Below are positions 5,014 through 62,452 of a DNA stretch of 64,000 nt, in pieces (the stretch's first letter is position 1; each line of letters starts with the position of its first letter). The position numbers and the translations under genes were made by a program. This stretch comes from Candidatus Poribacteria bacterium (GTDB lineage Bacteria; Poribacteria; WGA-4E; JAJDTR01). The notes beneath the pieces are model-generated. The model saw only the letters and a program-made list of their open reading frames with translations. It searched no databases and was not told the origin of the DNA. The stretch is from assembly GCA_028820655.1 (NCBI GenBank), contig JAPPIK010000006.1:183427-247426 (forward strand), given 5' to 3'.

Positions 5014-6198
5014 ATGGCAGCGCCACAACTTGAAAGCAAATTCATAGAATTGCAGCCGTTCTCGGATGAGATGGTCGTGAACATGGGACCTCAGCATCCG
5101 AGCACACACGGCGTGTTGCGCCTGGAGTTGAAACTTGACGGCGAAGTCGTGCGTGAAGCCATCCCGCATCTCGGCTATCTGCACCGCTGCTTTGAGAAAC
5201 ATTCGGAGAATCTGTCGTATCCGCAGATCATTCCGTTTACGGATCGCATGGACTACATCGCCGCCATGAACCAGAACTGGGGATTCTGCCTGGCCGTGGA
5301 GAAGTTGATGGCGGCGGATGAATCGAAGTCCTTTGAAGTCCCGGAACGCGCCGAGTACCTCCGCGTGCTCATCTGTGAACTGAATCGCATCGCCAGTCAT
5401 CTCTTGGCGTTCGGCACCTACGGTATGGACATCGGCGCCTTTACGCCGTTCCTTTACGCCTTCCGGGATCGCGAAAAGATTCTTCTGATGTTCGAGAAAA
5501 TCTGCGGCGCGCGATTAACCTACAACTATGTGCGTATCGGCGGGGTTTCCAGAGATTTGCCGCCTGATTTCCTTGACGAAGTGAAGGAGTTTATTGACTA
5601 CTTCGAGCCAAAGATTGATGAGTATAACAATCTTCTTTCCGGCAACAGCATTTTCATCGAGCGCACAGCCGGCGTCGCGGTGATGGACCAAGAGATGGCG
5701 ATCAACTACGGCGCGACGGGACCGAACCTTCGTGGCGCCGGAATGCAATGGGATCTGCGTAAGGACGAACCGTATTCCATTTATGATCGATTCGACTTTG
5801 ACATCCCCTACGGCAAAGATATGCCCGAAATCGGCGTGGTCAAGGGCGACTGTTGGAACCGATACAAGGTGCGAATGGATGAGTTGAAAGAATCCGTCAA
5901 GATTGTCCGACAGATACTTGAACTTGAGAGCGGCATTCCCGACGGACCGATTGTGGCGGAGTTCAAAGCCGTTCGCCCGCCGAAGGGTGAAATCTTCTTC
6001 CGGAGCGAGGCGCCGCGCGGCGAGTTGGGATTCTACATCGTGAGCGACGGCACGCCGAAACCGCTTCGTCTCAAGGCGCGGTCGCCGTGCTTTAGTGCGT
6101 TGAGCGCATTGTCGGAGTTGAGCAAAGGATTGATGGTCGCCGATATCATTGCCATTATCGGAAGCATCGATATTGTAATGGGCGAGGTTGACCGCTAA
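5014..6198 (+). CDS. nuoD: NADH-quinone oxidoreductase subunit D (49 kDa subunit)
   Basis: 394 aa. NMGPQHPSTHGVLRL N-terminal motif and C-terminal RxxCxSALS...GSIDIVMGEVDR signature. Confidence 0.92.
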   Translation: MAAPQLESKFIELQPFSDEMVVNMGPQHPSTHGVLRLELKLDGEVVREAIPHLGYLHRCFEKHSENLSYPQIIPFTDRMDYIAAMNQNWGFCLAVEKLMAADESKSFEVPERAEYLRVLICELNRIASHLLAFGTYGMDIGAFTPFLYAFRDREKILLMFEKICGARLTYNYVRIGGVSRDLPPDFLDEVKEFIDYFEPKIDEYNNLLSGNSIFIERTAGVAVMDQEMAINYGATGPNLRGAGMQWDLRKDEPYSIYDRFDFDIPYGKDMPEIGVVKGDCWNRYKVRMDELKESVKIVRQILELESGIPDGPIVAEFKAVRPPKGEIFFRSEAPRGELGFYIVSDGTPKPLRLKARSPCFSALSALSELSKGLMVADIIAIIGSIDIVMGEVDR

Positions 6199-6435
6199 AA
6201 TCCGTAGCGATCGAGGGAGTGGATAACGACCGCGACAGAAATCCCTCACACCACATGTAGGAGGGAATCAAGCGACTGGACAAGGAGTGCGATAGAGATC
6301 TTCTTGCCACGATCGGCTAACGTGCAATCAACCGAGTAGTTAGCCACCGCGATAGAGATCCTAAGGCGATAGAAAATCCTGTAATGAGTACCGTAGAATT
6401 TTGCTGACCACTGATCACTAACCACTGTCTTCAAA

Positions 6436-7701
6436 ATGTTTGACCAGATACAACAAATAATTTCAAATTCTCCACGAGTGTCCTCCGAAGCTACCGGAAA
6501 CTGGGCGGAGGAATTTGCCCGGAATCGGTTGATTCCGATTCTGGAACATCTTCCGTTTGTCCCGGCAGGGGTCGCCGAACACTTTCCCGTTTCGCTGGGT
6601 ACGATTCTCGTGATGTTCGGCGCATGCGGCATTTTTGTCGCAATTGTACCGCTCATTCCCCTGGTGCTGGTGCTGGCGGAGCGCAAGGTGTCTGCCCAGA
6701 TTCAGAACCGGACGGGTCCCATGCGCGTAGGTCCCTGGGGAACGCTTCAAACGCTGGCGGACGGGGTCAAGTTAATCTTTAAGGAGGATTTCATCCCTCC
6801 GCAGGGCGACAAACTACTCTTTGTCTTCGCACCATACATCATCTTCGCGTGTTCATTCGCCGCCTTCGCCGCCATCCCGTTTGGCCAAGGAATTTTAATC
6901 AGTGACTTCAACATCGGCATCTTCTATATTATGGCGATATCCTCGGTTGTCGTCATGGGCGTCATTATGGCGGGGTGGTCGTCCAACAGCAAATGGTCGC
7001 TCTTGGGGGCGCTCCGATCCGCCGCACAAATCGTCAGCTACGAAATTCCGTTGGGGCTCTCCATTCTGGTCGTTGTGATGCTGGTTGAGAGCCTGAGGAT
7101 GCAGGATATCGTCGGCAGTCAATCCGAGGGGCTGTTTAGCTGGCTGATATTCCGCACTCCCTTCACGTTTATCGGCTTTTTCGTCTTCTTTATCTCATCG
7201 ATCGCCGAAGTGAATCGGACGCCGTTTGACCTACCGGAGGCGGAATCGGAGATTGTCGCGGGGTTCCACACCGAATACAGCGGAATGCGGTTCGCGCTCT
7301 TCTTCATCGCCGAATATGCGAACATGTTCGCCGTGAGCGCCATCGCGGCAACGTTGTTCCTCGGCGGTTGGGAGGGCATACTTCCGGGATACGACTTCCT
7401 CGGCGGAATGCCGGGCTTCGTCCTTAAGACACTGTTCTTGGTGTTTGTCATGATGTGGTTGCGGTGGACGCTGCCGCGCCTGCGCGTGGATCAGTTGATG
7501 AACCTCTGCTGGAAATATCTCCTGCCCATCGCATTCTTCAACATTCTGGGAGTGGGGATATGGGGATTGATCTTCCCCAAAGATTCCAGGCTAAGCATAA
7601 TCATCAGCATGGCTATCATCGTTGTCGGGATTATCGTCACCTACGCCGTGGCGGGAAAGAGCCTTTCCAAACGCCCCGAGCCTCAGCCGAGTTCAGCTTA
7701 A
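6436..7701 (+). CDS. nuoH: NADH-quinone oxidoreductase subunit H; N-terminal extent uncertain (true start may be internal)
   Basis: ERKVSAQIQNRTGPMRVGPWGTLQTLADGVK and EYSGMRFALFFIAEYANM motifs. About 80 residues precede the ER motif versus about 35 in typical NuoH. Confidence 0.85.
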   Translation: MFDQIQQIISNSPRVSSEATGNWAEEFARNRLIPILEHLPFVPAGVAEHFPVSLGTILVMFGACGIFVAIVPLIPLVLVLAERKVSAQIQNRTGPMRVGPWGTLQTLADGVKLIFKEDFIPPQGDKLLFVFAPYIIFACSFAAFAAIPFGQGILISDFNIGIFYIMAISSVVVMGVIMAGWSSNSKWSLLGALRSAAQIVSYEIPLGLSILVVVMLVESLRMQDIVGSQSEGLFSWLIFRTPFTFIGFFVFFISSIAEVNRTPFDLPEAESEIVAGFHTEYSGMRFALFFIAEYANMFAVSAIAATLFLGGWEGILPGYDFLGGMPGFVLKTLFLVFVMMWLRWTLPRLRVDQLMNLCWKYLLPIAFFNILGVGIWGLIFPKDSRLSIIISMAIIVVGIIVTYAVAGKSLSKRPEPQPSSA

Positions 7702-7720
7702 CATAGGGAGGGATGGTACG

Positions 7721-8383
7721 ATGAACAAGTATTTCTACAATATCTACAAAGCGCTCTACACGGTGCTCATCGGCATGCGGATCACGTTTAAGCAAATGTT
7801 CCAGCACGCGGTAACACATCAGTATCCCTATCAACGTCCGTTTGAGAAGAAGCGAAACGTGCGTGATATTCCCAAGGGTTATCGGGGGCAACTGTTCAAT
7901 AGGATTGAAGACTGCATCGGCTGCAAGAAGTGCGAGATGATTTGTCCCGTCGACTGCATCGCTATCACCACCCAGAAACTTCCCAAGGGGGAACGGCTTT
8001 GGGATAGCATGAACGTGGTTCATCTCAAGGATCGCTCCGAGGTTGTCGGTTTCGTCGAAGGCGACGAGAAGGTGGTCCCGGACACAACGGTCACCGTCAA
8101 AACTCGTGACGACCAATCCCTTGACATCCCGAGCGGCGACATTGCCCGAATCGTCGAACGCAAACCCGTCATCTTCTATCTCGACAAGTTTGACATTGAT
8201 ATGTCGCTCTGTATGTACTGCGGGCTTTGCACCGAAGTTTGCCCGACGGAGTGCCTGATAATGTTTGATGATATGAAAGGCATCGAGTATTCGACGTTCG
8301 ACCGAATGGAATTGGTATTTCCGTTTGCCAAACCTGAGATGTACCAAAATGAGCCTGCTGCCGAGACGGAAGCGACCGAGTAA
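7721..8383 (+). CDS. nuoI: NADH-quinone oxidoreductase subunit I (2x[4Fe-4S]) with an ~50-aa insertion between the two cluster motifs
   Basis: ATG 7721 preceded by AGGGAGGG. CIGCKKCEMICPVDC and CMYCGLCTEVCPTEC ferredoxin motifs. Confidence 0.9.
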   Translation: MNKYFYNIYKALYTVLIGMRITFKQMFQHAVTHQYPYQRPFEKKRNVRDIPKGYRGQLFNRIEDCIGCKKCEMICPVDCIAITTQKLPKGERLWDSMNVVHLKDRSEVVGFVEGDEKVVPDTTVTVKTRDDQSLDIPSGDIARIVERKPVIFYLDKFDIDMSLCMYCGLCTEVCPTECLIMFDDMKGIEYSTFDRMELVFPFAKPEMYQNEPAAETEATE

Positions 8384-8566
8384 CGGCTACTGTAGGGTGC
8401 GCACCGCGCACGAGCGTTTAAAAGCCCTAGAGAGGATCAAGCGACTCAATAAGTAGCGCGATAGAGATGTCTTATTCTTCAATAATCCGGTTTCTCTAAT
8501 CCTCGTTGCATTGTCTTTTAACATGAACCAACTAGCCACTGACCACTAGCCACTAAACACTGCCTT

Positions 8567-9094
8567 ATGGAATTCGCCGGCATTAAATCCCTGATATTTT
8601 ACGCTTTCGCGTTGCTCACCGTTGCCTCCGCGGTCCTCGTGGTAACTGTGCGGAACATCGTCCACGCCGCCTTTTCACTGATGATTACGCTCTTTGGCGT
8701 TGCGGGGCTTTATGTGTTTCTGCAAGCCGACTTCCTCGCCGCAACCCAAGTCATCGTCTACGTCGGCGGCATTCTGGTACTCATCCTTTTCGGTGTCATG
8801 ATGACGAGCGGGCGCCTCCAAATGAGGATTCAGATTGAACGGGGACAACTAATCCTCGGTGGACTGGTCGCGCTGTTGATTCTGCTCCTTCTGTTCGGCG
8901 TGATTTCAAATACGCCCCATTGGGAAGGAATCAAGGACGACGGGTCAACCTTGGAACCGACCACCCGCACCATCGGCGAGATGATTATGCAAGGTGAATT
9001 CCTGCTGCCGTTTGAGGTTGTCTCAATCCTGCTGTTAGTGGCGCTCATCGGCGCAGCGCTGATTTCTCGCAAGGAGGTGCGAGACGAAGAATGA
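8567..9094 (+). CDS. nuoJ: NADH-quinone oxidoreductase subunit J
   Basis: 175 aa, 5 TM helices, position within cluster. Stop overlaps nuoK start (ATGA). Confidence 0.85.
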   Translation: MEFAGIKSLIFYAFALLTVASAVLVVTVRNIVHAAFSLMITLFGVAGLYVFLQADFLAATQVIVYVGGILVLILFGVMMTSGRLQMRIQIERGQLILGGLVALLILLLLFGVISNTPHWEGIKDDGSTLEPTTRTIGEMIMQGEFLLPFEVVSILLLVALIGAALISRKEVRDEE

Positions 9095-9399
9095 CGCTCC
9101 AGCACTATCTCGTTATCAGCGCGATCCTGTTCACGCTCGGCGTATTTGCCGTATTGACCCGCCGGAACGCAATTAGTATCCTGATGGGGATCGAGTTGAT
9201 TCTTAACTCGTGTAACCTGAACTTCGCGGCGTTCTCCCGCTTTATGACGCCTGCCGAGGACATCAACGGGCAAATCATCGCCATCTTCGGGATTGTGCTT
9301 GCCGCCGCGGAAGCGGCAGTGTTTTTGGCTATTATTTTGGCGATTTACAGGGAGTTTGGCACAATCCAACCCGATCAAACGGATACATTGAAGGGATAA
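9091..9399 (+). CDS. nuoK: NADH-quinone oxidoreductase subunit K
   Basis: 102 aa, 3 TM helices. LGIELILNSCNLNFAAFS and AAAEAAVFLAI motifs. Confidence 0.9.
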   Translation: MTLQHYLVISAILFTLGVFAVLTRRNAISILMGIELILNSCNLNFAAFSRFMTPAEDINGQIIAIFGIVLAAAEAAVFLAIILAIYREFGTIQPDQTDTLKG

Positions 9400-9403
9400 T
9401 AAG

Positions 9404-9817
9404 ATGGGCAGGATTTCGGTTGATCTCAAGCTGACAAATAGTCAAGATATGCTCCGTGCGGAAGATGGCATATTGCCTCCTGATCAGATTCGTCAGACAA
9501 CAGCGCGCGGTGTGGTTGACACCGGTGCAACGCGATTGGTAATACCTGCTGCAGTGGCTGAGCAGTTGGGACTGCCTGAGACTGGCGAAGTGGGAGTTCG
9601 TTATGCCGACGGACGGACGGGAACACGCAAGGTTGTCGAAAATGTTCGAGTGGCACTCCTAGACCGTGAATTCACGTTTCGTGCCATCGTTGAGCCGGAC
9701 CGAGACACGGCGCTTATCGGCGCGATTGTTCTTGAAGAACTTGATTTTGTCGTGGATTGCGTCGCCCAGAGGTTATATCCACGAGATCCGAATCGTATCA
9801 TCGCGGAGATTGAGTAA
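9404..9817 (+). CDS. Retropepsin-like (clan AA) aspartic protease, single-domain
   Basis: 137 aa. VVDTGATRLVIP catalytic D-T-G-A motif. Inserted between nuoK and nuoL with 4- and 12-bp gaps. Confidence 0.75.
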   Translation: MGRISVDLKLTNSQDMLRAEDGILPPDQIRQTTARGVVDTGATRLVIPAAVAEQLGLPETGEVGVRYADGRTGTRKVVENVRVALLDREFTFRAIVEPDRDTALIGAIVLEELDFVVDCVAQRLYPRDPNRIIAEIE

Positions 9818-9829
9818 GGAAAGGGTGGT

Positions 9830-12052
9830 ATGGTCGTACCTTTAATCAGCATAATTCTGCTTTGTCCGCTCGCGGCGTTCGCGTTCTTCGGACTGCTGTC
9901 ACTGACCGGTCGAAACTATTCGCGTCAAGACCTCGTCTCGACCGCGGCGATGCTAATCGCAGCAATCTGCTCCTTCCTCCTACTGCCGCAGATTACTTCC
10001 CACCCGGAGCCCATCTCGATTACGTGGATCGAAATCGACCAAATCAAACTGTCGATGGGATTCTATTTTGACAGCGTAACAGCGATGATGCTGCTCGTCG
10101 TCACGATTGTCAGTAGCCTCGTTCATATCTTTTCCATCGGCTACATGCACGGCGACCCCCGCTACCCTCGATTCTTTGCCTTCCTCTCGTTGTTCTCCTT
10201 TTCGATGTTGTTCCTCGTCGTCTCCGACAACCTGTTAGGCATCTATATCGGGTGGGAGCTTGTCGGGTTGTGTTCCTATCTGCTCATCGGGTTCTGGTTC
10301 GAGAAGGACTCCGCCGCAGACGCTTGCAAGAAGGCGTTCCTGACTACTCGTGTGGGCGATGTGGGGATGTTCGTGGGCATGATGATGTTATTCACGAAGT
10401 TCCATACGTTCGCGCTTTACGGCGACGGCGGCATCTTCGCGGCGGTCGCAAATTTGGGATCCGGTGACATCGTTTGGTTGTCCATTGCGGGTGTTCTTAT
10501 CTTCTGCGGGGCTATCGGCAAGTCGGCTCAGGTTCCGCTTCACACCTGGTTGCCCGATGCCATGGAAGGTCCCACACCCGTCAGCGCGCTCATACATGCA
10601 GCCACGATGGTGGCAGCCGGTGTCTACTTGACCGCGCGAATGTTTCCCATCCTGACGCCCGATTCCTCTCTGACGATAGCCTACGTCGGGGGTATCACAG
10701 CTATTGTAGCCGCTACAATCGCCATCGTCAGGTTTGACATCAAGCGGGTGCTCGCCTACTCGACCATCAGTCAACTGGGTTTCATGATGCTGGGTATCGG
10801 TGCCGGGAGCTACGTTGCGGGTCTCTTCCATCTCACCACGCATGCCTTTTTCAAAGCGTTGCTGTTCCTTGGATCGGGCAGCGTCATTCATGCGTTGGCG
10901 GTTCACAACGGCTCGCACGGCGACGACCACGGCCATGAACCGGAGCATCATGACGGCGAACACGGTGAAGCTGAACACCACGACGATACGGGGTTTGACA
11001 GCCACGGCATCCCGGAAGAGCAGGATATGCGCCACATGGGCGGACTACGCCGCAAGATGCCCATCACCTTCCTCACGATGCTGATTGCCACCCTGTCGAT
11101 TTCGGGCGTGCCGTTCGTGTTCTCCGGGTTCTGGAGCAAAGACGCCATCCTGGCGGGCGTTCTGGATCGGGCGATGGCATGGGATTCGGTGCATTACTAC
11201 ATTCTTTTCATAATCGCGCTCGGCGCCGCCGGCATCACCGCCTTCTATATGTTCCGTCTCATCTTCATGACCTTCTTCGGGGAACCGCGCAACAAAGAGA
11301 TGTACGACCACGCGCACGAGTCGCCGGGCGTCATGGCAGTTCCGCTGATCATTCTGGCAGTCCTCAGTTTTCCCATCGTGAACACCTGGTCTTTCAACCC
11401 GTGGTCTTTCAAAAAACATGTGAATGCGCCAATACAACCCCACGTGCACGCTCCCGCGCATGCTAACGAAGAGCGTCCGGTGCTATACGCGATGGCAGGC
11501 GCCTCCGACGCGCACGCTGCCGAAGACGCTGGCCACGGCGCTCATGACGCCGCGCACGCCGAAGACGACCACCATGCTCACCACAGCCCCGCCCACACGA
11601 TTGCAATGGTTCTCTCCATCATTGTTGCCAGTTTCGGCATTTTGCTATCCTATCTATTCTATCATCGCAAAGTATTCTCTGCCGAAGGTGCGGCGTCGCG
11701 TTTGCGTCCGCTTTACAAACTCTGCTGGGGCAAGTATTTCTTCGATGAATTTTATGACGGCGTAATCGTGGCGTTATCCGTCGCTTGGGCAGGGTCTCTC
11801 AGAGTTTTTGACTTGCGCGTGATTGACGGCATCGTGAATCTGGTGGGGTTTGTCACACGAGCGGTGGTCGCCGCGTTCACGGGTTGGTTTGATAACAAAT
11901 TTGTTGATGGGCTGGTAAATTGGGTCGCGCAGATTACGTGGTCGGTCGGTGGGAGGATTCGACGGATTCAAACCGGCGCCATCCAGAATTATCTGCTGAT
12001 CGTTTTGGGCGGTGTCGTGTTGTTGATTCTGATTTTCCGGCGATTTTTATAG
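9830..12052 (+). CDS. nuoL: NADH-quinone oxidoreductase subunit L with two His/Asp/Glu-rich insertions
   Basis: 740 aa. WLPDAMEGPTPVSALIHAATMV antiporter-like motif. Inserts HNGSHGDDHGHEPEHHDGEHGEAEHHDD and HVHAPAHANEE...HGAHDAAHAEDDHHAHHSPAH. Confidence 0.9.
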   Translation: MVVPLISIILLCPLAAFAFFGLLSLTGRNYSRQDLVSTAAMLIAAICSFLLLPQITSHPEPISITWIEIDQIKLSMGFYFDSVTAMMLLVVTIVSSLVHIFSIGYMHGDPRYPRFFAFLSLFSFSMLFLVVSDNLLGIYIGWELVGLCSYLLIGFWFEKDSAADACKKAFLTTRVGDVGMFVGMMMLFTKFHTFALYGDGGIFAAVANLGSGDIVWLSIAGVLIFCGAIGKSAQVPLHTWLPDAMEGPTPVSALIHAATMVAAGVYLTARMFPILTPDSSLTIAYVGGITAIVAATIAIVRFDIKRVLAYSTISQLGFMMLGIGAGSYVAGLFHLTTHAFFKALLFLGSGSVIHALAVHNGSHGDDHGHEPEHHDGEHGEAEHHDDTGFDSHGIPEEQDMRHMGGLRRKMPITFLTMLIATLSISGVPFVFSGFWSKDAILAGVLDRAMAWDSVHYYILFIIALGAAGITAFYMFRLIFMTFFGEPRNKEMYDHAHESPGVMAVPLIILAVLSFPIVNTWSFNPWSFKKHVNAPIQPHVHAPAHANEERPVLYAMAGASDAHAAEDAGHGAHDAAHAEDDHHAHHSPAHTIAMVLSIIVASFGILLSYLFYHRKVFSAEGAASRLRPLYKLCWGKYFFDEFYDGVIVALSVAWAGSLRVFDLRVIDGIVNLVGFVTRAVVAAFTGWFDNKFVDGLVNWVAQITWSVGGRIRRIQTGAIQNYLLIVLGGVVLLILIFRRFL

Positions 12053-18578: not shown

Positions 18579-19121
18579 GTGACCCTATCAGATATATTTG
18601 ACGCATGTCAAGATATTGAGTTGAGGCAGGCGAAGTTGTACGCCGCGCTGTCCTTGCGTTTGGGTGATGTGGATGAACGGATTGCCCGATTTTGGGAGCA
18701 GATGAGCACGGAGGAGTGGCAGCACTACATGCTCGTCGACTTCGGTCGGTCGCTATGTGCTCAGACGATCGGTCTGGACGCACCCGCCGCAGGGTTGCCG
18801 GGGGTGTCCATCCAACAGATCACGGATGCGTTAGACGAGCATGAGCGGAAGATTGATAGCGGGGAAATTACGCTGAATGGGGCTTTTGAGATCGCCATCG
18901 CCATTGAAGGGAGCGAGGCGGATACTATCTACATGTATCTGCTATCCACCATCAAAAAAGCGATATACGAGAGTGACCAACCGTACCTGATTAGCCGAAT
19001 CTCTCATGTTGAGAGGGACATGACGGTGCACATAGACCGCCTTATCGATGCCACCCGGCAGTTTTCCAAAGTACCGGAACTCGTCCGTAGTGCGCAGGCG
19101 CTGAAGGAACACCATCCTTAG
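18579..19121 (+). CDS. Hypothetical protein, possibly ferritin-like four-helix bundle
   Basis: ORF of 180 aa; only weak E..H-type pairs. No firm family assignment. Confidence 0.35.
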   Translation: MTLSDIFDACQDIELRQAKLYAALSLRLGDVDERIARFWEQMSTEEWQHYMLVDFGRSLCAQTIGLDAPAAGLPGVSIQQITDALDEHERKIDSGEITLNGAFEIAIAIEGSEADTIYMYLLSTIKKAIYESDQPYLISRISHVERDMTVHIDRLIDATRQFSKVPELVRSAQALKEHHP

Positions 19122-19204: not shown

Positions 19205-19870
19205 TCAGGCGTTGGCTACCCATTTTAACGGCTCGTTTTGCAAGTAGGGGCGTAGAAGGATTTGGAGGCGGCGGTGGGCGTGATGGAGATGTGCCTTGAT
19301 TGTCCCTTCGGACCTATCCAAGCGAGCGGCAATCTCTTTTAGCTGCAAGCCTTCATGATGTCGAAGGTTAAAGACTCGTTGCTGTCCCGGGGGGAGTTGG
19401 CTGACCGCTTCGCCTATTATTCTGCCGAGTTCTCTTGATTCCGCTTGGTCCGGCGGGCGTGGTTTTGAATCGTCGAAGATGAGGTCTTTTTCGGGAATTG
19501 TCGGGCTCAATTCGTCAAACGACACGGTGCGCTTTCGGTTTTGTTGGCGAATAAAGTCGATACAACGATTGATTGCGATTCGATAGATCCAACTATAAAA
19601 CGCCGATTCCTGCTTAAAACTGGGAAGAGCTTGGTACGCTTTGATGAATATCTCTTGGCAAAGGTCTTGGGCAGTCTCGGGATTGGCAACGTGTTTGTAA
19701 ACCAAGCTGTAGATTCTGCCTTGGTACCGTATGATTAGCTCGTTAAAGACATCCCGTTCGCCGCACTGAAACCGGTCAATGAGTTTGTACTCGTCAATAC
19801 GATTTGAATCTAACGACAAATCGACGATGGATAGTTGACTGGAATTAACCATTTGCCTTCTCCCTGACAC
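19205..19870 (-). CDS. ECF-subfamily RNA polymerase sigma-70 factor
   Basis: Sigma-70 region 2 (DLCQEIFIKAYQALPSF...FYSWIYRIAINRCIDFIR) and region 4 (LKEIAARLDRSEGTIKAHLHHA) helix-turn-helix. Confidence 0.85.
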   Translation of the reverse strand: MSGRRQMVNSSQLSIVDLSLDSNRIDEYKLIDRFQCGERDVFNELIIRYQGRIYSLVYKHVANPETAQDLCQEIFIKAYQALPSFKQESAFYSWIYRIAINRCIDFIRQQNRKRTVSFDELSPTIPEKDLIFDDSKPRPPDQAESRELGRIIGEAVSQLPPGQQRVFNLRHHEGLQLKEIAARLDRSEGTIKAHLHHAHRRLQILLRPYLQNEPLKWVANA

Positions 19871-20209: not shown

Positions 20210-21592
20210 ATGCCTCGATATAGCATTCAGAACAAAATCGTTTTGCCGTTCCTTGTACTTTTCATGGCCGTTCTGATTGTTGTTCCGCTCATTACCATCG
20301 CACTATTTGATCGAACATACAATAGGCAGTTCAGCCGTGAAACGGAGGGATGGCTGAAGGTCATCAAGGAAACGGGATACGTTGAAAGACCGGATCAGGT
20401 GCAACAGGCGTACGGCGTGGAAGTTATGGTTTTCGGCGCAAGCAACGCTCTGAATTTCACCTCACTGGACGATTTATCGGATGACGGTATGGTCAATCTG
20501 ACAACCTATATGAAGTTGCGGGAGGCGCGACAGAAAATAACAGAATCGGGTGACACCCTCGTATCGCAAAACGTCGTTCTTGACGGCATACCTTATAAAG
20601 TCATTTATGACTCACTCGCACAGGGGCGGCTTTACTGTTTGCTGCGTCCAATGGACGATATTGCGGTCGCCAGGCGTCGGTTGACATGGTTAATGTCGGG
20701 AATTGCCGTCGTCGTCATATCATTGGTTGCACTTACCAGCAATTTAGTTGGACGAAATCTCTCAAATCCGATAAAAAATTTGGTGCAGTTTACGCGGCAG
20801 GTCGCCGCAGGCAAGCTAGATGGGCAGTGCAACGTGAAGAGTGACGATGAGATTGGCGATTTAACGACTGCCTTCAATCAAATGACACGTGACCTGCGGG
20901 ATTCGCGGAACGAGCTTATCCGCGCCGAACGGCTTGCCACCGCGGGACGGATGGCGGCGTCATTTGCTCACGAAATTCGGAATCCGTTGTCCTCTATGCG
21001 GATGCTAACCCAGATGTTGATTCAGAGGAAGGACGTGCCGCCCTCAAAACGCGAACAATCGATGGGTTATATTCTTGAGGAGATTGGACGTATTGATGTT
21101 ATCGTCAAAGGATTCATGGATTTTGCGCGCCCGACGGCTCTCGAACTTGCGTCGCACGACCTCAATGATGCGCTTGAAGAGGTGCTCAACCTTATGGAAG
21201 CGAACTTGAACCATCACCAGATTACGCTTGTCAAGAAATTTGACTCGGAACTCTCCCCAATACGGGTTGACCGGGACAAGCTAAAACAGGGGTTCATGAA
21301 CATCATGCTGAATGCAATAGAGGCGATGGCGGAGGGAGGGACCGTTGAGGTAGAGACCTCACGGCATGAGGATCGAGTTCAAGTGGATGTCCTCGATACA
21401 GGATTCGGTATACCGGCGGAAGATGTGGAGCAATTGTTTGAACCGTTTTTCACCACCAAGGTACAGGGATCGGGACTTGGGCTGCCGAACACAAAAAGGA
21501 TTATGGAGCAACACGGCGGAGGGGTGACCATCAAGAGTGCTGAAGGCGAGGGGACGAGAGTGTCTTTTTGGCTTCCTTTAAAGCCTAATTGA
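20210..21592 (+). CDS. Sensor histidine kinase (TM - HAMP - HisKA - HATPase_c)
   Basis: H-box FAHEIRNPL. N box NIMLNAIEA. G1 DTGFGIP. G2 GSGLGL. Two TM segments flank a periplasmic domain. Confidence 0.88.
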   Translation: MPRYSIQNKIVLPFLVLFMAVLIVVPLITIALFDRTYNRQFSRETEGWLKVIKETGYVERPDQVQQAYGVEVMVFGASNALNFTSLDDLSDDGMVNLTTYMKLREARQKITESGDTLVSQNVVLDGIPYKVIYDSLAQGRLYCLLRPMDDIAVARRRLTWLMSGIAVVVISLVALTSNLVGRNLSNPIKNLVQFTRQVAAGKLDGQCNVKSDDEIGDLTTAFNQMTRDLRDSRNELIRAERLATAGRMAASFAHEIRNPLSSMRMLTQMLIQRKDVPPSKREQSMGYILEEIGRIDVIVKGFMDFARPTALELASHDLNDALEEVLNLMEANLNHHQITLVKKFDSELSPIRVDRDKLKQGFMNIMLNAIEAMAEGGTVEVETSRHEDRVQVDVLDTGFGIPAEDVEQLFEPFFTTKVQGSGLGLPNTKRIMEQHGGGVTIKSAEGEGTRVSFWLPLKPN

Positions 21593-21801
21593 ACAAGGGG
21601 TACAAAATCCGTAAACGGTCATTTGAGGAATGTTTTTTCAGGTTGTCAAAGTTGCATGCGTGTGGAATCTTAATCGCACTCCTTGTTTATGTGGTCGATT
21701 TCCGGCTACGGGGTAGTGCGAAAAGTAGCTGGTGGTATCAGTCTCTCCACCGTAAAACGGTTGGATAACTCAAGAGTTAACGTTTTTCAAATGAAATGAC
21801 A

Positions 21802-24555
21802 TTATTTGTGGATTCTCGCCGAATTCGCAAATAGTTTCTTGGCTTTTTGTCGGTTTAACGGAAGCACCGCGAGAACGCAAAACGCGCCGACCCATTGCCA
21901 TTCCCCCAACCTCAGTGGGGCTGTTCCGAAAATATTGGCTGCGGGTTCATGGTAAATAACTGCCGTATGCAGTCCCAAACAGACGAGAATGGCGGAGAGC
22001 AAGGGGAGGTTTGCCGCCATTCTTTGGGGGAGCGACTCCCATGCATAACGACGGCGCTGGAAGTTGGAGAGCAATTGGGTGAAGATGAGAATGGTACACG
22101 TTGTGGATTGTGCCACCATTTGAGTCTGCGCCCAACTCGCGGATCTCGGCCCGATGGTCACCAAGAATCCCGCAATCGCGAATGCGCTCATGAACAAACC
22201 GCGCAGCAAATCGGCACGCCAAGGGGTGTGCAGGAACGGTGGAATTTTCTGAAGTCTACGGTACTTGAATTGCTCCTGAATTCGGTCGCGTCCCAAGAAG
22301 CCAAGCGGAATCACGTTCACGAGTAGATGAATCCAGACAATCTGAAGAAGAGTCAGCGGCATAGGAAAACCGTACAGTCGATGCAACGCTAAACCGGCAA
22401 CGAGCGTGAACAATTGGGCAAGAGTGCACGAAAGCAGCCACCGCATTGAGTATCTCAGATTGTCACACGCCTCACGCGCGTGGTGCAACAACGCCTCAAT
22501 TACCGAAAATCCGTCCTTAAGCACGAGACAATGTGCGTGTTGTTGTACTGCGTGACATGCATGCGATGCCGAAGCCAGACTCAGGTCCGCCGCTTTCATG
22601 GCGCCCACGTCCCTCGGACTCCGCCCTAAAAAACCCAATGTATATCCGTGCCGTGCCAAGTGTTGCGTAATTTTCAGCGTCTGTGCAGCGGAAAGTTTGC
22701 AATATACCAAGCTGCGACTGACGACAGAATCGTAATCTTCACCATGGATGTCAAAATCGAATCTCTCCGCGATTGCATTTCTGTCCTGCGTTATCCCGAT
22801 TTCTTTGGCGAGCTCTGTAGCCGCCCGCGAATCCAAGTCGGTGCTAACTACTACCTTGACACCCGCATCCATGCAGGATTCAACGGCTTCCCTGGATTCT
22901 TTGTGGATGGATGATGAAAGTGCCACCAGCCCCAAAAACGTGGCACCGCGTTTTATATCGCGCTGAAATCCGGCGGCACCGAAAATCCTATGCGCAACCC
23001 CAAAGACATGTGCTCCTCTACTTTGTAGATGTTTGGTTACCTGCCGAATCAACTCTGATTGATCCGAAGAAATCTCGTACGTAGTGCCTTGGTCCTGGAC
23101 TGATCGACAATCCAAAAGCACCGCCCCCGGATTACCGAGGATTATCTCCAGACGTTTCTCGCCTTCAGTGTTAAACACAAATCCTTGATAGGGATGATTC
23201 GGCGTCTCGGGGATTTCATCTATCAAGGGTAGTTCGGTGTCATAACGCTTGAGATCGAAGCCAATCCGATTAGCGACTTCTTTAAGAGCCGTGTATATAT
23301 CTTCGCCCGCCGAATTGGCGTGCCGGTAACGTCTACCGCTAGCACATCGACTGGCAGCCAATATCAACAATGGAAATCCGTAAGGTACTTGGGACTCCGG
23401 CGGCGGAACAGGAAGGGTGTTCTCGTCCGCGTCGCCGGATGCCTCGTCCAGGTCTGCAATCCACTGTTCCCAAGCGGCTTGCTCAATCAACTGCTCGTCG
23501 ACGAACACATGAGAAAGCGAAAGACTTGCCTGCGTGACAGTGCCAATCTCGTCTACACAAACCGCATTGAGGTTATTCAGTTTCTCTAGGGTATCCAAGC
23601 GCTGTATAGCAACCCCTTTTTTCAGTAGTTTCTCGGCACTGTCGGCAAGAATCGACCAGGTCATCGACGCAATGCCGTCCGGGACGGATGCGATAGCAAA
23701 TCCCAATCCCAAAAGAAAAAGTTGCATCCATTCCAATCGGACATCGGCGGTTCTGGTCAGTGCCCAAGTAATAGCAACGGCAACCGTGGCGGCGATCAAA
23801 CCCGTAAAGCTGAAATAGTTGTAGAAACGGCGCATCTGCCTCTCGGCTTCCGTGCAAGGGTCGGAAGGAATAGACGGCTGTCTACCGTTTATCTGGAGTT
23901 CAAGATTTTTGCCAGTCTTCACCACGATCACCCGGCCATGGCCCTCCACCACGTACGTTCCCCCAAATACCATATTTCTCTGCTTTTCGGGTGGAACAGT
24001 AGCACTTTCCAGCGCATCTTCAGCACTTTTCTGGACAGATATCGCTCCATCGAACAGTCGTGATTCATCAATACCAAGCGAGTCCGTCTCGACAACGCGA
24101 GCATCGGCGGGGACATAGTCTCCTTCATTAAGGATAAGCAAATCTCCCGGCACAATGTCTTTTGGAAATAGCTTGGTAAGCACGCCGCCGCGAATAACGG
24201 ATACGTGTATGTTCACGTGTTTTCGGATGGTTTGAAGTTGATTACGAGCCTTGGTTACCAGGGCAAACCTCCAAACGACCTGGAATCCAAGAATGGCAAA
24301 GATCACGATGGCTTCGTGAACCGCCTGCTGAGAATACCATAGTGCGGCAGCGGCAACCGCCAACAGTAACACCGGTATGTTAGCAATTTGCCTCAGGAGA
24401 AGTAAAGACAGGCGGGGTATAGGTAAAGAGTCAAATCCATTGTCGCCATAACGCTGATGTCGGGCTCTCGCCGCATCATTGGTTAGTCCACGCTCAAGAT
24501 CTGTCGCTAACGCGTGCAAGATATGCGGAATCGTCTGGGCATGCCAGTCTGACAT
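21802..24555 (-). CDS. P-type ATPase homologue with degenerate catalytic motifs (likely non-catalytic)
   Basis: 917 aa with P-type topology. Signature motifs altered: TGES->FDGA, PEGLP->PDGIA, DKTGT->DEIGT, TGD->TDL, GDGxND->GRSPRD. Confidence 0.7.
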   Translation of the reverse strand: MSDWHAQTIPHILHALATDLERGLTNDAARARHQRYGDNGFDSLPIPRLSLLLLRQIANIPVLLLAVAAAALWYSQQAVHEAIVIFAILGFQVVWRFALVTKARNQLQTIRKHVNIHVSVIRGGVLTKLFPKDIVPGDLLILNEGDYVPADARVVETDSLGIDESRLFDGAISVQKSAEDALESATVPPEKQRNMVFGGTYVVEGHGRVIVVKTGKNLELQINGRQPSIPSDPCTEAERQMRRFYNYFSFTGLIAATVAVAITWALTRTADVRLEWMQLFLLGLGFAIASVPDGIASMTWSILADSAEKLLKKGVAIQRLDTLEKLNNLNAVCVDEIGTVTQASLSLSHVFVDEQLIEQAAWEQWIADLDEASGDADENTLPVPPPESQVPYGFPLLILAASRCASGRRYRHANSAGEDIYTALKEVANRIGFDLKRYDTELPLIDEIPETPNHPYQGFVFNTEGEKRLEIILGNPGAVLLDCRSVQDQGTTYEISSDQSELIRQVTKHLQSRGAHVFGVAHRIFGAAGFQRDIKRGATFLGLVALSSSIHKESREAVESCMDAGVKVVVSTDLDSRAATELAKEIGITQDRNAIAERFDFDIHGEDYDSVVSRSLVYCKLSAAQTLKITQHLARHGYTLGFLGRSPRDVGAMKAADLSLASASHACHAVQQHAHCLVLKDGFSVIEALLHHAREACDNLRYSMRWLLSCTLAQLFTLVAGLALHRLYGFPMPLTLLQIVWIHLLVNVIPLGFLGRDRIQEQFKYRRLQKIPPFLHTPWRADLLRGLFMSAFAIAGFLVTIGPRSASWAQTQMVAQSTTCTILIFTQLLSNFQRRRYAWESLPQRMAANLPLLSAILVCLGLHTAVIYHEPAANIFGTAPLRLGEWQWVGAFCVLAVLPLNRQKAKKLFANSARIHK

Positions 24556-24958
24556 ATTTGACTCAACCTGTAGGCTGGGGGCGGTTTGATCTCAGTTCAC
24601 GATGGACTGGGGAATCTTCTTGAAGATTCTTGGGGAGCTAACACTCAATTGAAAGATAAGCGGCAAACCAGTATTCGGCATTAGAGTTGAGTCTAATGCG
24701 CGTGCAACGCGCAGGGAGACGGCGGGCAACACGAAAGGAAACCGACAGCCTTTACTCACATCGTTGAAAATGGAATACGGTTGACGGCCGCCAATCAATT
24801 TCTATCGCAGCCCAAACCTCGCTGCGTGCCGTTATCCGCTAGCTTGAGTCAATCCCGCCATCAATTCCAACCTGAAAAAACTAGACCGGACGTGCAAGGA
24901 CTGGGATGTCTTCAAGAAAAGAGCGAGCATCGACAAACCGATGATTGAAAAGATGCTT

Positions 24959-25891
24959 TCAGACAGACCCTAGGCTTGTCGATTGGATGAGTTGTACGGT
25001 TGCCCCGGTTGTATCAATGGACAAAATCTTGACATCACAGACAACTTCATGGCGGGCGAATGCCTGAGACATCTTCTCGGCAACTTTGTGCATGGCGGAT
25101 ATGCAGTAAGCGGCAACAGTTGGCCCTGCACCGCTCAATGCAACGCTCAACGCGCCAGCCTGTTTTGCCGCTTCCGCAATCTCATCGAAACCCGATATCA
25201 ATGGTATACGGTAGGGTTGATGCAGTCGATCATCCATCGCTTCGGATAACATCCCGAAATTACCGGTGGCAACGGCGGCAACAAGCAGTGAGCTACGACT
25301 CACATTAAACGCGGCGTCCTTGAATTCCACCGATTTGGGCAAAATTTGGCGTGCGTCTTTGGTTGAAATCGGGAAGTCCGGAATCGCCACCACCACCTGT
25401 AGACGTGAAGCACAATCCAACTTAATCGTGTGGACAACATCAGAGTCCGTCACGGAAACAACGAATCCACCCAATAACGATGCAGCTACATTGTCCGGGT
25501 GTCCTTCAATTTCGCAAGCAAAATTGAGGAGTTCGGATTGTGAAAATGGTTCACCACAGAGTGCGTTTGCGGTAAGTAAGCCGCCAAGGATAGCGGTGCC
25601 GCTACCCCCTAATCCGCGGAGTGCCGGTATCCCGTTGGTTAGAACTAATCTGAGCCCTTTAGGACAGTTTCCGCTGCGTTCAAATACTAGCTCTGCGGCT
25701 TGAAGGCTTATGTTTTCGGATGTGCTGGGAATCTTATTGGCGTCGATTCCCGATACAACGACTTCCCTGCCACTTCCCGTTTCTTCCAACTCGACCGTGC
25801 TATACAGTTGGAGTGCCAATCCGAGCACATCAAAACCCGGTCCAAGGTTTGTCGTACTTGCAGGAACACGCGCTATTGCTTTACGAGACAT
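24959..25891 (-). CDS. thrB: Homoserine kinase
   Basis: GHMP kinase motif PASTTNLGPGFDVLGLAL and LSGAGPTV. Length 310 aa. Confidence 0.85.
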   Translation of the reverse strand: MSRKAIARVPASTTNLGPGFDVLGLALQLYSTVELEETGSGREVVVSGIDANKIPSTSENISLQAAELVFERSGNCPKGLRLVLTNGIPALRGLGGSGTAILGGLLTANALCGEPFSQSELLNFACEIEGHPDNVAASLLGGFVVSVTDSDVVHTIKLDCASRLQVVVAIPDFPISTKDARQILPKSVEFKDAAFNVSRSSLLVAAVATGNFGMLSEAMDDRLHQPYRIPLISGFDEIAEAAKQAGALSVALSGAGPTVAAYCISAMHKVAEKMSQAFARHEVVCDVKILSIDTTGATVQLIQSTSLGSV

Positions 25892-25895
25892 ACAC

Positions 25896-27062
25896 CTAGG
25901 CTATCTTTGCAATTCCCGCGTTCATACGCTCTAGAGCTTCATTGATGTTTTCAAGGGAATTTGCGTACGAAAGTCTCAAATACCCGTCGCCGTATTTACC
26001 GAACGCTGTTCCCGGCAACAGCGCGACGCCAGCCTCACTGAGCAGATAATCGGCGAGGTCGCCGCAAGAAAGGGGGAGTTGCGTCACATTAGGAAACACG
26101 TAAAAGGCTCCGAGCGGCTTGCGACAACTGATTCCTTCAATCGCGTTCAGACCGTCGACGATAGCGTCACGTCGAGTCTTGAATTCGGCAGCCATGTTCC
26201 CCACAAAGTCTTGCGGCCCTTTGAGAGCCTCGATACCCGCAATTTGAATGAACGTCGTCGTACAAGAATTGGAGTTAATCGTCAACTGGGTAATCTTATC
26301 AGCCATAGGCTTCGGCGCAATGCCGTAGCCAAGTCTCCACCCCGTCATTGCGTAGGTCTTTGAGTGTCCCTCGATCATGATTGTCCGTTCTTTCATGCCG
26401 GGCCGATTGATCACACTGTCGTGAGTTCCTTCGTAGAGTAAGCGGGAGTAGACTTCATCGGTGAGGACGTAGAAATCGTGCTTCACCGCCAATTCCGAGA
26501 TTGCATCAAGGTCCTCTTTCAATAGAATCCCGCCTGTCGGATTCTGGGGCGAATTGATAATCAACAGTTTTGTTTTATCGGAAATCGATTGAACAAGGTC
26601 GTCAATGCGAAATCGGAAATCTACGTCCTCGCGGAGTGGGAGCGCTACGGGAGTAGCGCCGATGAAGTTGATAACGGACTCATAGATTGGGAATCCCGGT
26701 TCCGGATAGATAACTTCGTCGCCCTCGTCAGCTAAAGCCAAGATGGTAAAGAACATGATCGGTTTGGCGCCGGGCGTCACCGTAACCTCGTCCGGGTGAA
26801 TCGCGACACCCCGCGTTTCCGAGATATGTTCAGCCACGACCTCGCGAAACTCCAGCATTCCCGCAGACGGACCGTAACCCGTGTGCCCATCCTTCATAGC
26901 CTTGAAGGCGGCCTCGCAGATGTTCATTGGTGTTATGAAGTCGGGTTGTCCAATCTCAAGATGAATAATGTCTCGTCCCTGTGTTTCGAGGGCTTTCGCT
27001 TTCGCGAGCACCTCGAACGCTGACTCAGTTCCCAGACGGTCCATACGAGCCGCAAAATCCAT
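25896..27062 (-). CDS. Class I/II pyridoxal-phosphate aminotransferase (aspartate aminotransferase-like)
   Basis: 388 aa. INSPQNPTG and SKTYAMTGWRLGY (PLP-Lys region) motifs. Confidence 0.85.
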   Translation of the reverse strand: MDFAARMDRLGTESAFEVLAKAKALETQGRDIIHLEIGQPDFITPMNICEAAFKAMKDGHTGYGPSAGMLEFREVVAEHISETRGVAIHPDEVTVTPGAKPIMFFTILALADEGDEVIYPEPGFPIYESVINFIGATPVALPLREDVDFRFRIDDLVQSISDKTKLLIINSPQNPTGGILLKEDLDAISELAVKHDFYVLTDEVYSRLLYEGTHDSVINRPGMKERTIMIEGHSKTYAMTGWRLGYGIAPKPMADKITQLTINSNSCTTTFIQIAGIEALKGPQDFVGNMAAEFKTRRDAIVDGLNAIEGISCRKPLGAFYVFPNVTQLPLSCGDLADYLLSEAGVALLPGTAFGKYGDGYLRLSYANSLENINEALERMNAGIAKIA

Positions 27063-27213: not shown

Positions 27214-28245
27214 TTACCTATACTGCATGACCAGACCATTGTTGCCTGTCACCCAAGCTCTTTCACCTCTTATGAAGATGTCCTTCACGGGAATTTTGGC
27301 TACGTCAGGCTCACTTAATTCCTGTGTTTGCCACGTTTTCCCGCCATCCGTCGTGTGGATAATCGCTGTCACGCCGAAGTCGCCTCCGACTGCCCAACCG
27401 ACGGTCTCGCTCGCGAACTGGACACTCAAGAGGTGTTCCTCAGTACCGCTGGACTGGCTTTCCCACGTATCTCCGCCATCGGTGGTATTGAGTATGACCC
27501 CGTTTTCCCCGACCGCCCATCCTATCGAGTGGTTAACGAAGAACACGTCTTTCAAGATATCTTCGATGTGGGTTGGCTGGTCTATCCAATTTGCGCCGCC
27601 ATCGACGGTTTTCTGGATCAACCCGTCTTGGCCTCCCGTGCGTGGACTGAGTCGTACGCCAACCACCCAACCCGTGGAATCATCGACAAATTGAACCCCG
27701 TTGAAGACACTCGTATCGTCTTCGCCGACTCCACTGCCGGCTTGCCCGCCGCGCAGAATCTTCCACGTATTTCCGCCATTCCCCGTTTGAAGAATGGTCT
27801 CGCCCATTCCGACCACAAAGCCGTTCGTCGGGCTGACAAAATAGACACTATATAGGTCGTTCCCTACTTTGCTAGTTTGAATGTCCCAACGTCTGCCGCC
27901 GTCCTTGGTGGCGACAATCGTGCCCTCGGCGCCAATCGCCCATCCGTGTTTGTTATCGTAAAAGTAAATGGCCGACAGGTTTTTGTTGACGTCAACCTCA
28001 GCCTTCGACCAAGTTCTGCCGCCGTCTTTTGTGTGACCGATGAACCCCGGGTAGTCCATTTCAAGGACAGAACTTCCCACGACCCAGCCTTCTTTTGAAC
28101 TTGTGAACGCAATCGAGAAGTAATCCCTTATTTCGGGGTCCTGCTTCTGCATCACGCCCCATTCGCCGTGTGCGTAACCTTTGCCAAAGCTAGTTATGAG
28201 CAACACAATGACTCCGATTTGAAGCCATCCCCGTTGGTATATCAT
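27214..28245 (-). CDS. Secreted BNR/Asp-box repeat beta-propeller protein (Ycf48-like)
   Basis: Six S/T-x-D-G-G-x-T/N-W repeats (DGGRTW, DGGRRW, NGGNTW, DGGANW, DGGDTW, DGGKTW). Signal peptide. Confidence 0.8.
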   Translation of the reverse strand: MIYQRGWLQIGVIVLLITSFGKGYAHGEWGVMQKQDPEIRDYFSIAFTSSKEGWVVGSSVLEMDYPGFIGHTKDGGRTWSKAEVDVNKNLSAIYFYDNKHGWAIGAEGTIVATKDGGRRWDIQTSKVGNDLYSVYFVSPTNGFVVGMGETILQTGNGGNTWKILRGGQAGSGVGEDDTSVFNGVQFVDDSTGWVVGVRLSPRTGGQDGLIQKTVDGGANWIDQPTHIEDILKDVFFVNHSIGWAVGENGVILNTTDGGDTWESQSSGTEEHLLSVQFASETVGWAVGGDFGVTAIIHTTDGGKTWQTQELSEPDVAKIPVKDIFIRGERAWVTGNNGLVMQYR

Positions 28246-54891: not shown

Positions 54892-55184
54892 AGGGCGCCT
54901 CCTTGTTTGTGATGTAAATTCAATCCTAGCATACTAGGCAGGAAATTGGAAGGGGAAAAGAGAGGCAGTGGCCAGTGACGGTGGCCGTAAAAGGCAACGG
55001 TCGGGGAAGCAGTACACGAGGGGACGGGTCGGGGCAAAGGGAGCTATATCGCGCTCGCTATTCGCTTCCTTGATCACTCACTATCCGTTCGCTTGATTCC
55101 CTCCTACGTCTTGGTGGAAGGGAGTTCAATTAGGGTTACGGCATACGGCGTATGCCTACTACAGAGGTAGCATAGGATTTTGAT

Positions 55185-55214
55185 TTTGACAGGTTTGCGG
55201 GGGCGTGATATAAT
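55185..55214 (+). promoter_or_regulatory. Near-consensus sigma-70 promoter (TTGACA - 18 bp - TATAAT) upstream of the rhodanese-E1 gene
   Basis: Exact -35 and -10 hexamers. Lies 100 bp upstream of ATG 55313 and just after the gggttacggcatacggcgtatgcctacta element. Confidence 0.55.
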
Positions 55215-55312
55215 TGGAAATGGTTGGGTGGGCTGCGAAACGCGGCGTGCCGGGAGGGATGTTCAGGGGTTGTCTCGGATTGTGCCGCATGTTTTTGAGG
55301 GGAGTGAATTTT

Positions 55313-56512: not shown

Positions 56513-56746
56513 GGTGTGCCCCGGAGGTTTAAAGGCAGTGGCCTGTGTTCAGTGGCTAGTGACCAGTAAAGGCGGGGAGTTGGGTTTCGCTAGAGTTGCG
56601 GTGTTTTCGAGTTACCTGAACCATCAAGAGATTTTATTGACGCGAGTTCTTTTGGAGTTCCGCTCAACCCAACCTACGGGCTGAAATTGCCCCTAAAAGG
56701 CACTAAAACATGGGTTTGAGTTCCAAAGTAGCAAAATGGTGAACCA

Positions 56747-62398: not shown

Positions 62399-62452
62399 TG
62401 GCAATCGCTTGACGCCCCCCTACCAATATGTTATTATTCCCAATGATAGTGT

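Follow-up and report, generated by a model that had tools for sequence, protein, structure and literature searches.

What defines the P-type ATPases is a phospho-aspartate cycle, and nearly all characterised members are pumps. In the MFS, APC and ABC superfamilies, some transporter-derived proteins no longer transport and serve as receptors or regulators, as do the yeast transceptors Snf3/Rgt2 and Ssy1 and the SUR subunit of K-ATP channels. Here we describe a gene that matches these in concept, that is, one in which a transporter fold appears to have been kept under selection after transport was lost. It lies in a 64,000-nucleotide stretch of DNA (hereafter, the window) from a Candidatus Poribacteria bacterium and encodes a homologue of the P2A-type Ca2+ pumps, called here a pseudo-pump, whose catalytic and cation-binding residues have been replaced.

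The nearest precedents are eukaryotic, namely the flippase modules of the alveolate guanylate cyclases (P4GC) and the contested protein TMEM94. In the P4-ATPase module of the alveolate cyclases, the Asp of DKTGT and the Glu of DGET are degenerate in Cryptosporidium, in the haemosporidian P4GC-beta and in others; the predicted fold is kept, and a supporting, non-pumping role has been proposed (PMC13466520). It is a eukaryotic module of the P4 subtype, fused to a cyclase, with a loss that is partial and lineage-specific, whereas the pseudo-pump is bacterial, stand-alone and P2A-derived, with a near-total loss across a phylum-wide orthologue group. TMEM94 (ERMA), found in the human endoplasmic reticulum, has ten transmembrane (TM) helices and domains resembling the pumps' actuator (A) domain, their phosphorylation (P) domain and their nucleotide-binding (N) domain, and has no TGES; in one cryo-electron microscopy study the proposed site held no nucleotide, and neither Mg2+ binding nor ATPase activity was found (PMC12134183), but another study argues that it is a Mg2+ ATPase (PMC13322241). 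TMEM94 is, moreover, eukaryotic and is not a close relative by sequence, whereas the Poribacteria protein is by sequence an unambiguous P2A homologue. For a stand-alone bacterial P-type ATPase devoid of the catalytic apparatus, no description was found in the literature searched, the coverage of which was incomplete.

The gene occupies the following place in the window, as defined by its open reading frame (ORF) and translation, Pfam, phmmer against PDB sequences and an AlphaFold2 model:

21802..24555, minus strand: P2A-ATPase-like pseudo-pump gene, complete

We consider it likely that this gene encodes a non-catalytic descendant of a P2A-type (PMR1/LMCA1/SERCA-like) Ca2+-ATPase, acting as a membrane platform or regulatory subunit. 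The ORF is intact, with 917 codons and an ATG start, and the start codon is right since the orthologues all align from M1. The identical database protein (MDE0297518.1, from a Candidatus Poribacteria metagenome-assembled genome) is recorded as a 'cation transporting ATPase C-terminal domain-containing protein'. Three Pfam models match the protein well above their gathering thresholds (GA), namely PF00122 E1-E2_ATPase (92 bits, GA 28), PF00689 Cation_ATPase_C (66 bits, GA 27) and PF00690 Cation_ATPase_N (42 bits, GA 20), and together with an architecture of ten TM helices and A, P and N domains they place it within the P-type ATPase superfamily by homology and fold. Searches with phmmer against PDB sequences gave end-to-end alignments to human SPCA1 (2e-55), Listeria LMCA1 (3e-54) and SERCA; judged by these alignments, the protein is a full-length homologue of the P2A Ca2+ pumps. 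The top NCBIfam model, the PMR1-type Ca2+-ATPase, scored 241 bits against a cutoff of 798, and the pseudo-pump is far under every equivalog cutoff of that collection.

The predicted structure follows the same configuration. An AlphaFold2 model built on 57 family sequences (predicted local distance difference test score, pLDDT, 78; predicted TM-score, pTM, 0.70) shows the A, P and N domains beside ten TM helices. Foldseek matched it along its whole length with solved P2 pumps, at TM-scores of 0.73 to the SERCA E1-sarcolipin structure and of about 0.70 to SPCA1 and Na,K-ATPase E1 states. The model of an orthologue carrying Asn at the phosphorylation site also takes the P-type ATPase fold (pLDDT 77). 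A family-specific insertion with an amphipathic helix follows the phosphorylation strand at residues 359-395, as seen in the alignment and in the model. The preserved length and ten-helix P2 topology that had been noted from the letters of the DNA are thus confirmed by full-length alignment and by a modelled fold close to the solved P2 pumps.

The motif columns were read in two independent alignments, a phmmer alignment to SPCA1 and a MAFFT alignment with 120 canonical P2 pumps, in which each motif is 97-100% conserved. The places corresponding to the cytoplasmic motifs are these (residue numbers are those of the window protein):

24043..24054, minus strand: place of the TGES dephosphorylation loop (A domain), here FDGA, residues 168-171 (motif columns)

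23539..23553, minus strand: place of the DKTGT phosphorylation motif, here DEIGT, residues 335-339 (motif columns)

23497..23505, minus strand: FVD triplet at the P-to-N hinge, a family-specific invariant common to the distant degenerate relatives, residues 351-353

23122..23139, minus strand: place of the KGAPE nucleotide-binding motif (N domain), here LGNPGA with the ATP-binding Lys lost, residues 473-478

22903..22914, minus strand: place of the DPPR motif, here SSIH, residues 548-551 (motif columns)

22834..22842, minus strand: place of the TGD motif, here TDL, family pattern [ST][DE]x, residues 572-574

22609..22626, minus strand: place of the GDGxND hinge motif, here GRSPRD with the last Asp alone kept, residues 644-649

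The sequence-only reading of this DNA had named five degenerate motifs (FDGA, PDGIA, DEIGT, TDL and GRSPRD), and all of them stand in the aligned columns, both against SPCA1 and against the 120 canonical pumps. We give virtually no credence to an alignment artefact, in which the true motifs would lie elsewhere: both alignments put the same residues under each motif, the flanking anchors fit (VDES before TGES, ICxD...G.T around DKTGT and AMKAAD after the hinge), and no DKTGT, TGE[ST], PEGL or GDGxND string was found anywhere in the 917-residue protein. In the Pfam scan, PF00122 is above its threshold and the HAD Hydrolase model PF00702 below (17.2 bits, GA 26.4).

Compared with the P2A Ca2+/Mn2+-ATPases (SPCA1/PMR1, LMCA1, SERCA), the pseudo-pump shares the domain order and the ten TM helices, and the positions it retains are structural, including the beta-barrel signature of the A domain (VIRxG...VPGD...GDxxPAD.R), the proline of the fourth TM helix (M4), glycines and the last hinge Asp. 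It differs from them in that TGES, DKTGT (bar its Asp), KGAPE, DPPR, TGD, K684 and GDGxND (bar its last Asp) are replaced, as are all of the Ca2+ ligands E309, N768, E771, N796 and D800 (losses are given in SERCA numbering). The N-domain ATP ligands are gone from the window protein, with Glu in place of F487, Leu in place of K515 of KGAPE, His in place of R560, and GDPTE lost; these positions are 91-99% conserved in the 120 canonical pumps, and the family has E/variable, F/L, Q/H and variable residues in their place, respectively. R678 and K684 are lost (Thr stands for K684, which is Arg in most of the family), and K352, T353, N706, the Asp of TGD and the Glu of TGES are absent as well. The D703 position is Arg, Lys or Gln across the family, the N706 position is variable, and the D707 equivalent (D649) is invariant. 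Thus, the sequence features of a functional P-type pump (TC 3.A.3) are lacking at DKTGT, at TGES, at the N-domain ATP ligands, at the P-domain Mg2+ and phosphate ligands and at the cation ligands of M4-M6. From its residues, the protein almost certainly no longer pumps, and we infer that it would be incapable of the Post-Albers cycle and of cation transport through the canonical site.

This degenerate state is not private to the window. Among 5.8 billion proteins, a homologue search picked out about 120 full-length relatives, which fall into four tiers of identity (65-71%, 43-46%, about 35% and 33-34%) and are all degenerate at every motif. In a scan of one genome per GTDB species, the best 80 matches came from 80 different Poribacteria genomes, with one locus each. 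All complete copies at the 86 loci used for the synteny counts are single-frame, intact ORFs of 907-976 residues; three copies are cut by a contig end. In this family, Phe168 is 97% conserved where canonical pumps carry Thr (family pattern F-[GDN]-x-x), and the Lys of DKTGT has become Glu in 90% of the sequences.

Coding-sequence evolution indicates that the family is maintained. Ratios of nonsynonymous to synonymous substitution (dN/dS, or omega), calculated by NG86 over 33 phylogenetically independent close pairs, had a median of 0.136 and ranged from 0.07 to 0.24 in all 33 pairs; the neighbouring genes gave 0.046-0.119. By domain, omega was 0.08-0.09 in both halves of the P domain and in TM5-6, 0.14-0.16 in the N and A domains, TM3-4 and TM7-10, and 0.28 in TM1-2, the least constrained part. 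Furthermore, 65 positions are at least 90% conserved in the family and rare in canonical pumps; they include Phe168, Glu336, the FVD triplet, several invariant Trp and core residues of the P domain, and they concentrate in the P domain, the stalk, the cytoplasmic loops L6-7 and L8-9, and M7-M10, a segment relatively better conserved in the family than in canonical pumps. The protein therefore joins clear homology and the loss of catalytic residues to purifying selection across species, as a pseudoenzyme does.

The same data bear on the possibility of a decaying pseudogene, or of a pump inactivated not long ago and without function. Such decay could account for the pseudo-pump being the fastest-evolving gene of its syntenic block, with 33% identity across the deepest splits against 52-80% for its neighbours. 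However, the intact frames at the 86 loci, the low dN/dS in every pair and in every domain (at most 0.28), the 65 family-specific invariant positions and the survival of an intact gene after its relocation in some lineages (see below) make this explanation highly improbable. The alternative of unconstrained decay, against which the first reading of the sequence had asked for an orthologue survey, is set aside by this selection, and the survey gave a degenerate state common to about 120 homologues and 80 Poribacteria species genomes.

The phosphorylation site itself deserves closer attention. The window protein retains the phospho-acceptor Asp (D335), but the nucleophile position holds Asn in about half of the orthologues (the largest tier, with NENGLAT), His or Thr in single sequences, and Glu, Ser or Asn in the more distant relatives. 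Because Asp has given way to Asn in about half of the orthologues, the function common to the family cannot rely on a phosphoenzyme. Residues 335 and 645 covary, such that Asp occurs with Lys or Arg in 61 sequences, Asn with Gln in 46 and Asp with Gln in 10, a pattern that suggests, from the sequences, that side chains now fill the old Mg2+-phosphate site. The former phosphorylation pocket would then be plugged, apparently by Asp335-Arg/Lys645 or Asn335-Gln645 pairs instead of the Asp-Mg2+-Asp arrangement.

One may ask whether the protein has kept its energy coupling, as an enzyme or transporter that works by a non-canonical mechanism, for instance with Asp335 phosphorylated by another donor, or as a phosphatase. 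HAD motifs I and II and a part of motif IV persist as Asp335, Thr572 and Asp649, no other domain is under stronger constraint than the P domain, and the protein passes the 62-bit cutoff of the model TIGR01494 (HAD-IC P-type ATPase subfamily) with 86 bits. However, the HAD core as described by PF00702 is not recovered: motif I is partly kept, motif II kept (T/S572), motif III lost and motif IV half kept. With that model under its threshold, with Asn, His or Thr as the nucleophile in positional orthologues and Glu or Ser in distant members, and with K352, T353, K684, D703, N706, the TGD Asp, the TGES Glu and all N-domain ATP ligands absent, we regard a non-canonical enzyme as quite unlikely.

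The membrane domain shows a comparable replacement at the ion site, and it carries a set of new invariant residues at its cytoplasmic side:

23668..23682, minus strand: place of the PEGLP ion-gate motif (M4), here PDGIA, residues 292-296 (motif columns)

22414..22455, minus strand: M5 segment RYSMRWLLSCTLAQ, residues 701-714, ligands N768/E771 replaced by Thr/Gln

22306..22341, minus strand: M6 segment IVWIHLLVNVIP, residues 739-750, ligands N796/D800 replaced by His/Asn

22021..22212, minus strand: cytoplasmic ends of M7 to M9 with L6-7 and L8-9, residues 782-845, family-specific invariant residues

The helix-breaking proline of M4 (P292) is invariant and the MRWLLSC signature of the M5 segment is family-conserved, whereas the Glu309 position varies across the family (D/E/Q/G/Y/H/S) and is hypervariable (Q/G/Y/H/S) in the largest orthologous tier. 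The six cation ligands, which read E-N-E-N-T-D in 80 of the 120 canonical pumps, read [ED]-[ST]-Q-H-V-[SN] or [QGYHS]-T-[LQ]-Q-x-T in the family, with differences between orthologous lineages, and most orthologues carry uncharged residues there. With ligand positions that vary by lineage and are mostly uncharged, and with a hypervariable M4 gate, a conserved ion site is unlikely. At the cytoplasmic ends of M7-M9, in turn, the charged and aromatic residues D782, R785, Q833, R836, W839, E840 and R845 are invariant.

These features can also be read as those of a passive channel or carrier, in which the dead headpiece would be a gate or plug and the ten-helix domain an ATP-independent conduit; protons, water, an anion or a small neutral solute might pass through the uncharged polar former ion pathway. 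In favour of such a conduit, TM5-6 is among the most constrained parts (omega 0.09), M7-M10 has the relative conservation described above, the M4 Pro kink and polar residues of M5 and M6 (His/Gln, Asn/Thr, Gln) persist, and the palytoxin-opened Na,K-ATPase is among the good Foldseek matches (TMq 0.70), although this match is not specific. Yet orthologous lineages do not share the residues that line the canonical site, and in the largest clade the M4 gate is hypervariable, which is unexpected where a substrate site is conserved; the cytoplasmic entry, formed by TM1-2, is under the weakest constraint, and no transport-related gene context was found around the gene. A passive channel therefore appears unlikely to us.

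The platform or regulatory-subunit reading is the one we prefer. The architecture persists in full, with an N-terminal segment, the three cytoplasmic domains, ten TM helices and the M4 kink, and the catalytic and cation residues are replaced. Constraint is strongest in the P domain, in the core of M5-M6 and in the cytoplasmic L6-7 and L8-9 loops, where most of the new invariant residues also fall; by analogy with SERCA, these regions would form the junction that couples the headpiece to the membrane in real pumps. It is the constraint at this junction that leads us to a folded membrane platform or regulatory subunit as the most likely mode of action, with the conserved cytoplasmic, membrane-proximal surfaces expected to bind a partner or a non-nucleotide ligand. 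The sensor or regulatory scaffold that had been proposed at first is a reasonable guess.

Several points weigh against this interpretation. The loss of activity is deduced from the sequence; that the conserved residues cluster and that 335 contacts 645 is deduced from homology with SERCA. The covariation of 335 with 645 tracks phylogeny, so it reflects few independent events. In the window protein the Asp of DEIGT and the last Asp of the hinge are still there, as is a Thr at the place of TGD, and a residual or altered phosphatase-like chemistry in the window sub-clade is formally conceivable. The E1-like pose of the AlphaFold2 model is no evidence for a locked state. Finally, no conserved partner gene that would support a scaffold or regulator role was found among the neighbours, and the neighbours that are conserved (thrB, aminotransferase and BNR propeller) may reflect a stable genome backbone.

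The genes around the pseudo-pump in the window that bear on its context are the following:

24959..25891, minus strand: homoserine kinase thrB (TIGR00191, 276 bits against a cutoff of 168)

25896..27062, minus strand: aspartate-aminotransferase-like gene of the class I/II aminotransferases, upstream of thrB in the conserved block

27214..28245, minus strand: Ycf48-like BNR beta-propeller with an N-terminal signal sequence, member of the conserved block

20210..21592, plus strand: HAMP/HisKA/HATPase sensor histidine kinase, convergent with the pseudo-pump

19205..19870, minus strand: extracytoplasmic function (ECF)-type sigma factor, a neighbour in the window sub-clade

At 74 of the 86 loci, the pseudo-pump is co-directional with and downstream of the aspartate-aminotransferase-like gene and thrB, at a median distance of 114 bp from thrB (the shortest being 4-10 bp). 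The longer syntenic block runs through an S49 peptidase, PCMT, a hypothetical gene, a FlgD-Ig protein, the Ycf48-like BNR propeller, the aminotransferase, thrB and the pseudo-pump. Since the order aminotransferase-thrB-pseudo-pump is conserved, the identity tiers represent positional orthologues and not paralogues. In one Poribacteria sub-lineage (locus L003 and about 10 similar ones, L012-L017, L020, L054 and L064), the gene has been relocated and is still intact; it now sits behind RNase E/G, about 200 bp downstream of rplU-rpmA. Two closely related Poribacteria genomes (L001, positions 5175-9972, and the equivalent at L006) have an insertion of 5-6 kb between thrB and the pseudo-pump; it contains a DnaE2-like PHP/DNA_pol3_alpha gene (1040 residues), an ORF of 261 residues without Pfam match and an SRAP gene (PF02586), and looks like a damage-inducible mutagenesis cassette.

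The kinase and the sigma factor had been brought forward in the sequence-only reading as context for a signalling role. Both genes are real; however, they flank the pseudo-pump at 9-10 of the 86 loci, all within the window sub-clade, and elsewhere that side holds a DUF6785 gene, an alcohol dehydrogenase or a PKD/cohesin protein. Conserved genomic linkage of the kind expected of a two-component or ECF-linked sensor module was therefore not found, and a functional link of the pseudo-pump to the kinase or the sigma factor was rejected as the synteny is not conserved. The neighbourhood gives a signalling role no support because the two genes are confined as its neighbours to the window's own sub-clade and the kinase is convergent; they are probably not part of the feature. 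Hence, of the proposal of a pseudo-enzyme in place of a pump, the core stands on the motif columns, the shared degenerate state, the dN/dS and the change of Asp to Asn, and the supporting argument from the neighbours falls. Beside the sigma factor gene there is an ORF of 180 residues (18579-19121, plus strand) that is 85-94% conserved in the sub-clade and has no Pfam or NCBIfam match; its product may be an anti-sigma factor.

Degenerate relatives also occur beyond the orthologue family. In a neighbour-joining tree, the proteins P0125, P0126, P0127, P0129 and P0138 group with the Poribacteria family in 29 of 30 bootstraps, and several of the 65 family-specific positions are also found in them; all degenerate proteins come together in 30 of 30. 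The wider grouping, with the P0145 group and the P0266 type, should be taken with caution on account of long-branch attraction, and only the union of the Poribacteria family with the five named proteins is solid. The P0125 gene lies 8-10 bp downstream of an aminotransferase-thrB pair. The P0138 gene, labelled Poribacteria and of a deep lineage (locus L087, 5248-11078, and also L088), is directly behind a gene for a signal-peptide-bearing Ycf48-like BNR propeller, with a gap of 84 bp, and is followed after 13 bp by the gene of a cohesin/PKD-repeat protein. The Ycf48-like propeller, which the window also encodes two genes upstream (27214-28245), is a possible extracytoplasmic partner. We see an even chance that Poribacteria and a few deeper lineages hold an ancient, single-origin clade of stand-alone, dead P2A-type ATPases with a new, ATP-independent membrane function, in which the coupling junction would bind or signal to a partner, possibly the secreted Ycf48-like beta-propeller.

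Two other kinds of degenerate protein were encountered. In P0266, P0270, P0271 and P0291 (the last labelled Candidatus Poribacteria), a second degenerate P2-type kind, C[CS][SN]K[KTR]G stands at the DKTGT place, so that the Asp is Ser or Asn and the Lys is kept, and all other motifs are missing. In a third group, from metagenomes (P0145, P0180 and P0201), the phosphorylation site reads LCFD[AP][QRE]GV and the hinge F[IVL]GRRLYD. A profile search with nine distant degenerate relatives, aimed at their taxonomy, gained little, as its candidates were swamped by canonical pumps; looking up their clusters gave a name for just one of them, Poribacteria. At the distant locus L086, an MtrC-like cytochrome and a porin are encoded near a degenerate pump.

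The DNA upstream of the gene was inspected for regulatory elements. An Rfam scan of the whole window at gathering thresholds gave nothing and no tRNA was found, and an E-value scan of 21000-25500 gave one sub-threshold chance match only; a riboswitch or other RNA element upstream of the pseudo-pump was therefore rejected. Scans for promoters and terminators gave results no higher than shuffled controls. A 15-nucleotide leader, GTTGAGTCAAT(T/A)ATG, lies at 24556-24575 (minus strand) in front of the start codon and is conserved in the window sub-clade only; it contains no Shine-Dalgarno-like sequence, and no recognisable ECF-type promoter was found. In other lineages, A-rich leaders precede the start of the pseudo-pump.

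Elsewhere in the window, the other long ORF (47922-50765, plus strand) was considered as a second ATPase paralogue and rejected, as it encodes a protein of 947 residues with multihaem cytochrome domains (c554/MtrC-MtrF-like) and C-terminal tetratricopeptide (TPR) repeats. The region 54000-64000 has a sustained GC skew of +0.18 to +0.23, against about 0 elsewhere, with an AT skew reaching -0.27 at 58-60 kb, and it holds ordinary genes, for ABC permeases, a heparinase II/III-like protein, ThiF-rhodanese and PhyH.

A machine of about 900 residues that is kept under purifying selection with its catalytic and ion-binding apparatus discarded implies that the P-type fold has a second use. In some database records these genes are entered as 'Ca2+-transporting ATPase' or as 'cation-transporting P-type ATPase', and metabolic reconstructions of sponge symbionts would then miscount pseudo-pumps as calcium or cation pumps. 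As a natural scaffold in which all motifs are dead, the protein could serve to separate folding and architecture from catalysis, and it offers a bacterial comparator for TMEM94 and for the flippase module of the apicomplexan guanylate cyclases. If our reading is true, prokaryotes would have in it their first pseudo-P-type-ATPase family, which would also let the P-type fold be studied in a natural system without the Post-Albers cycle.

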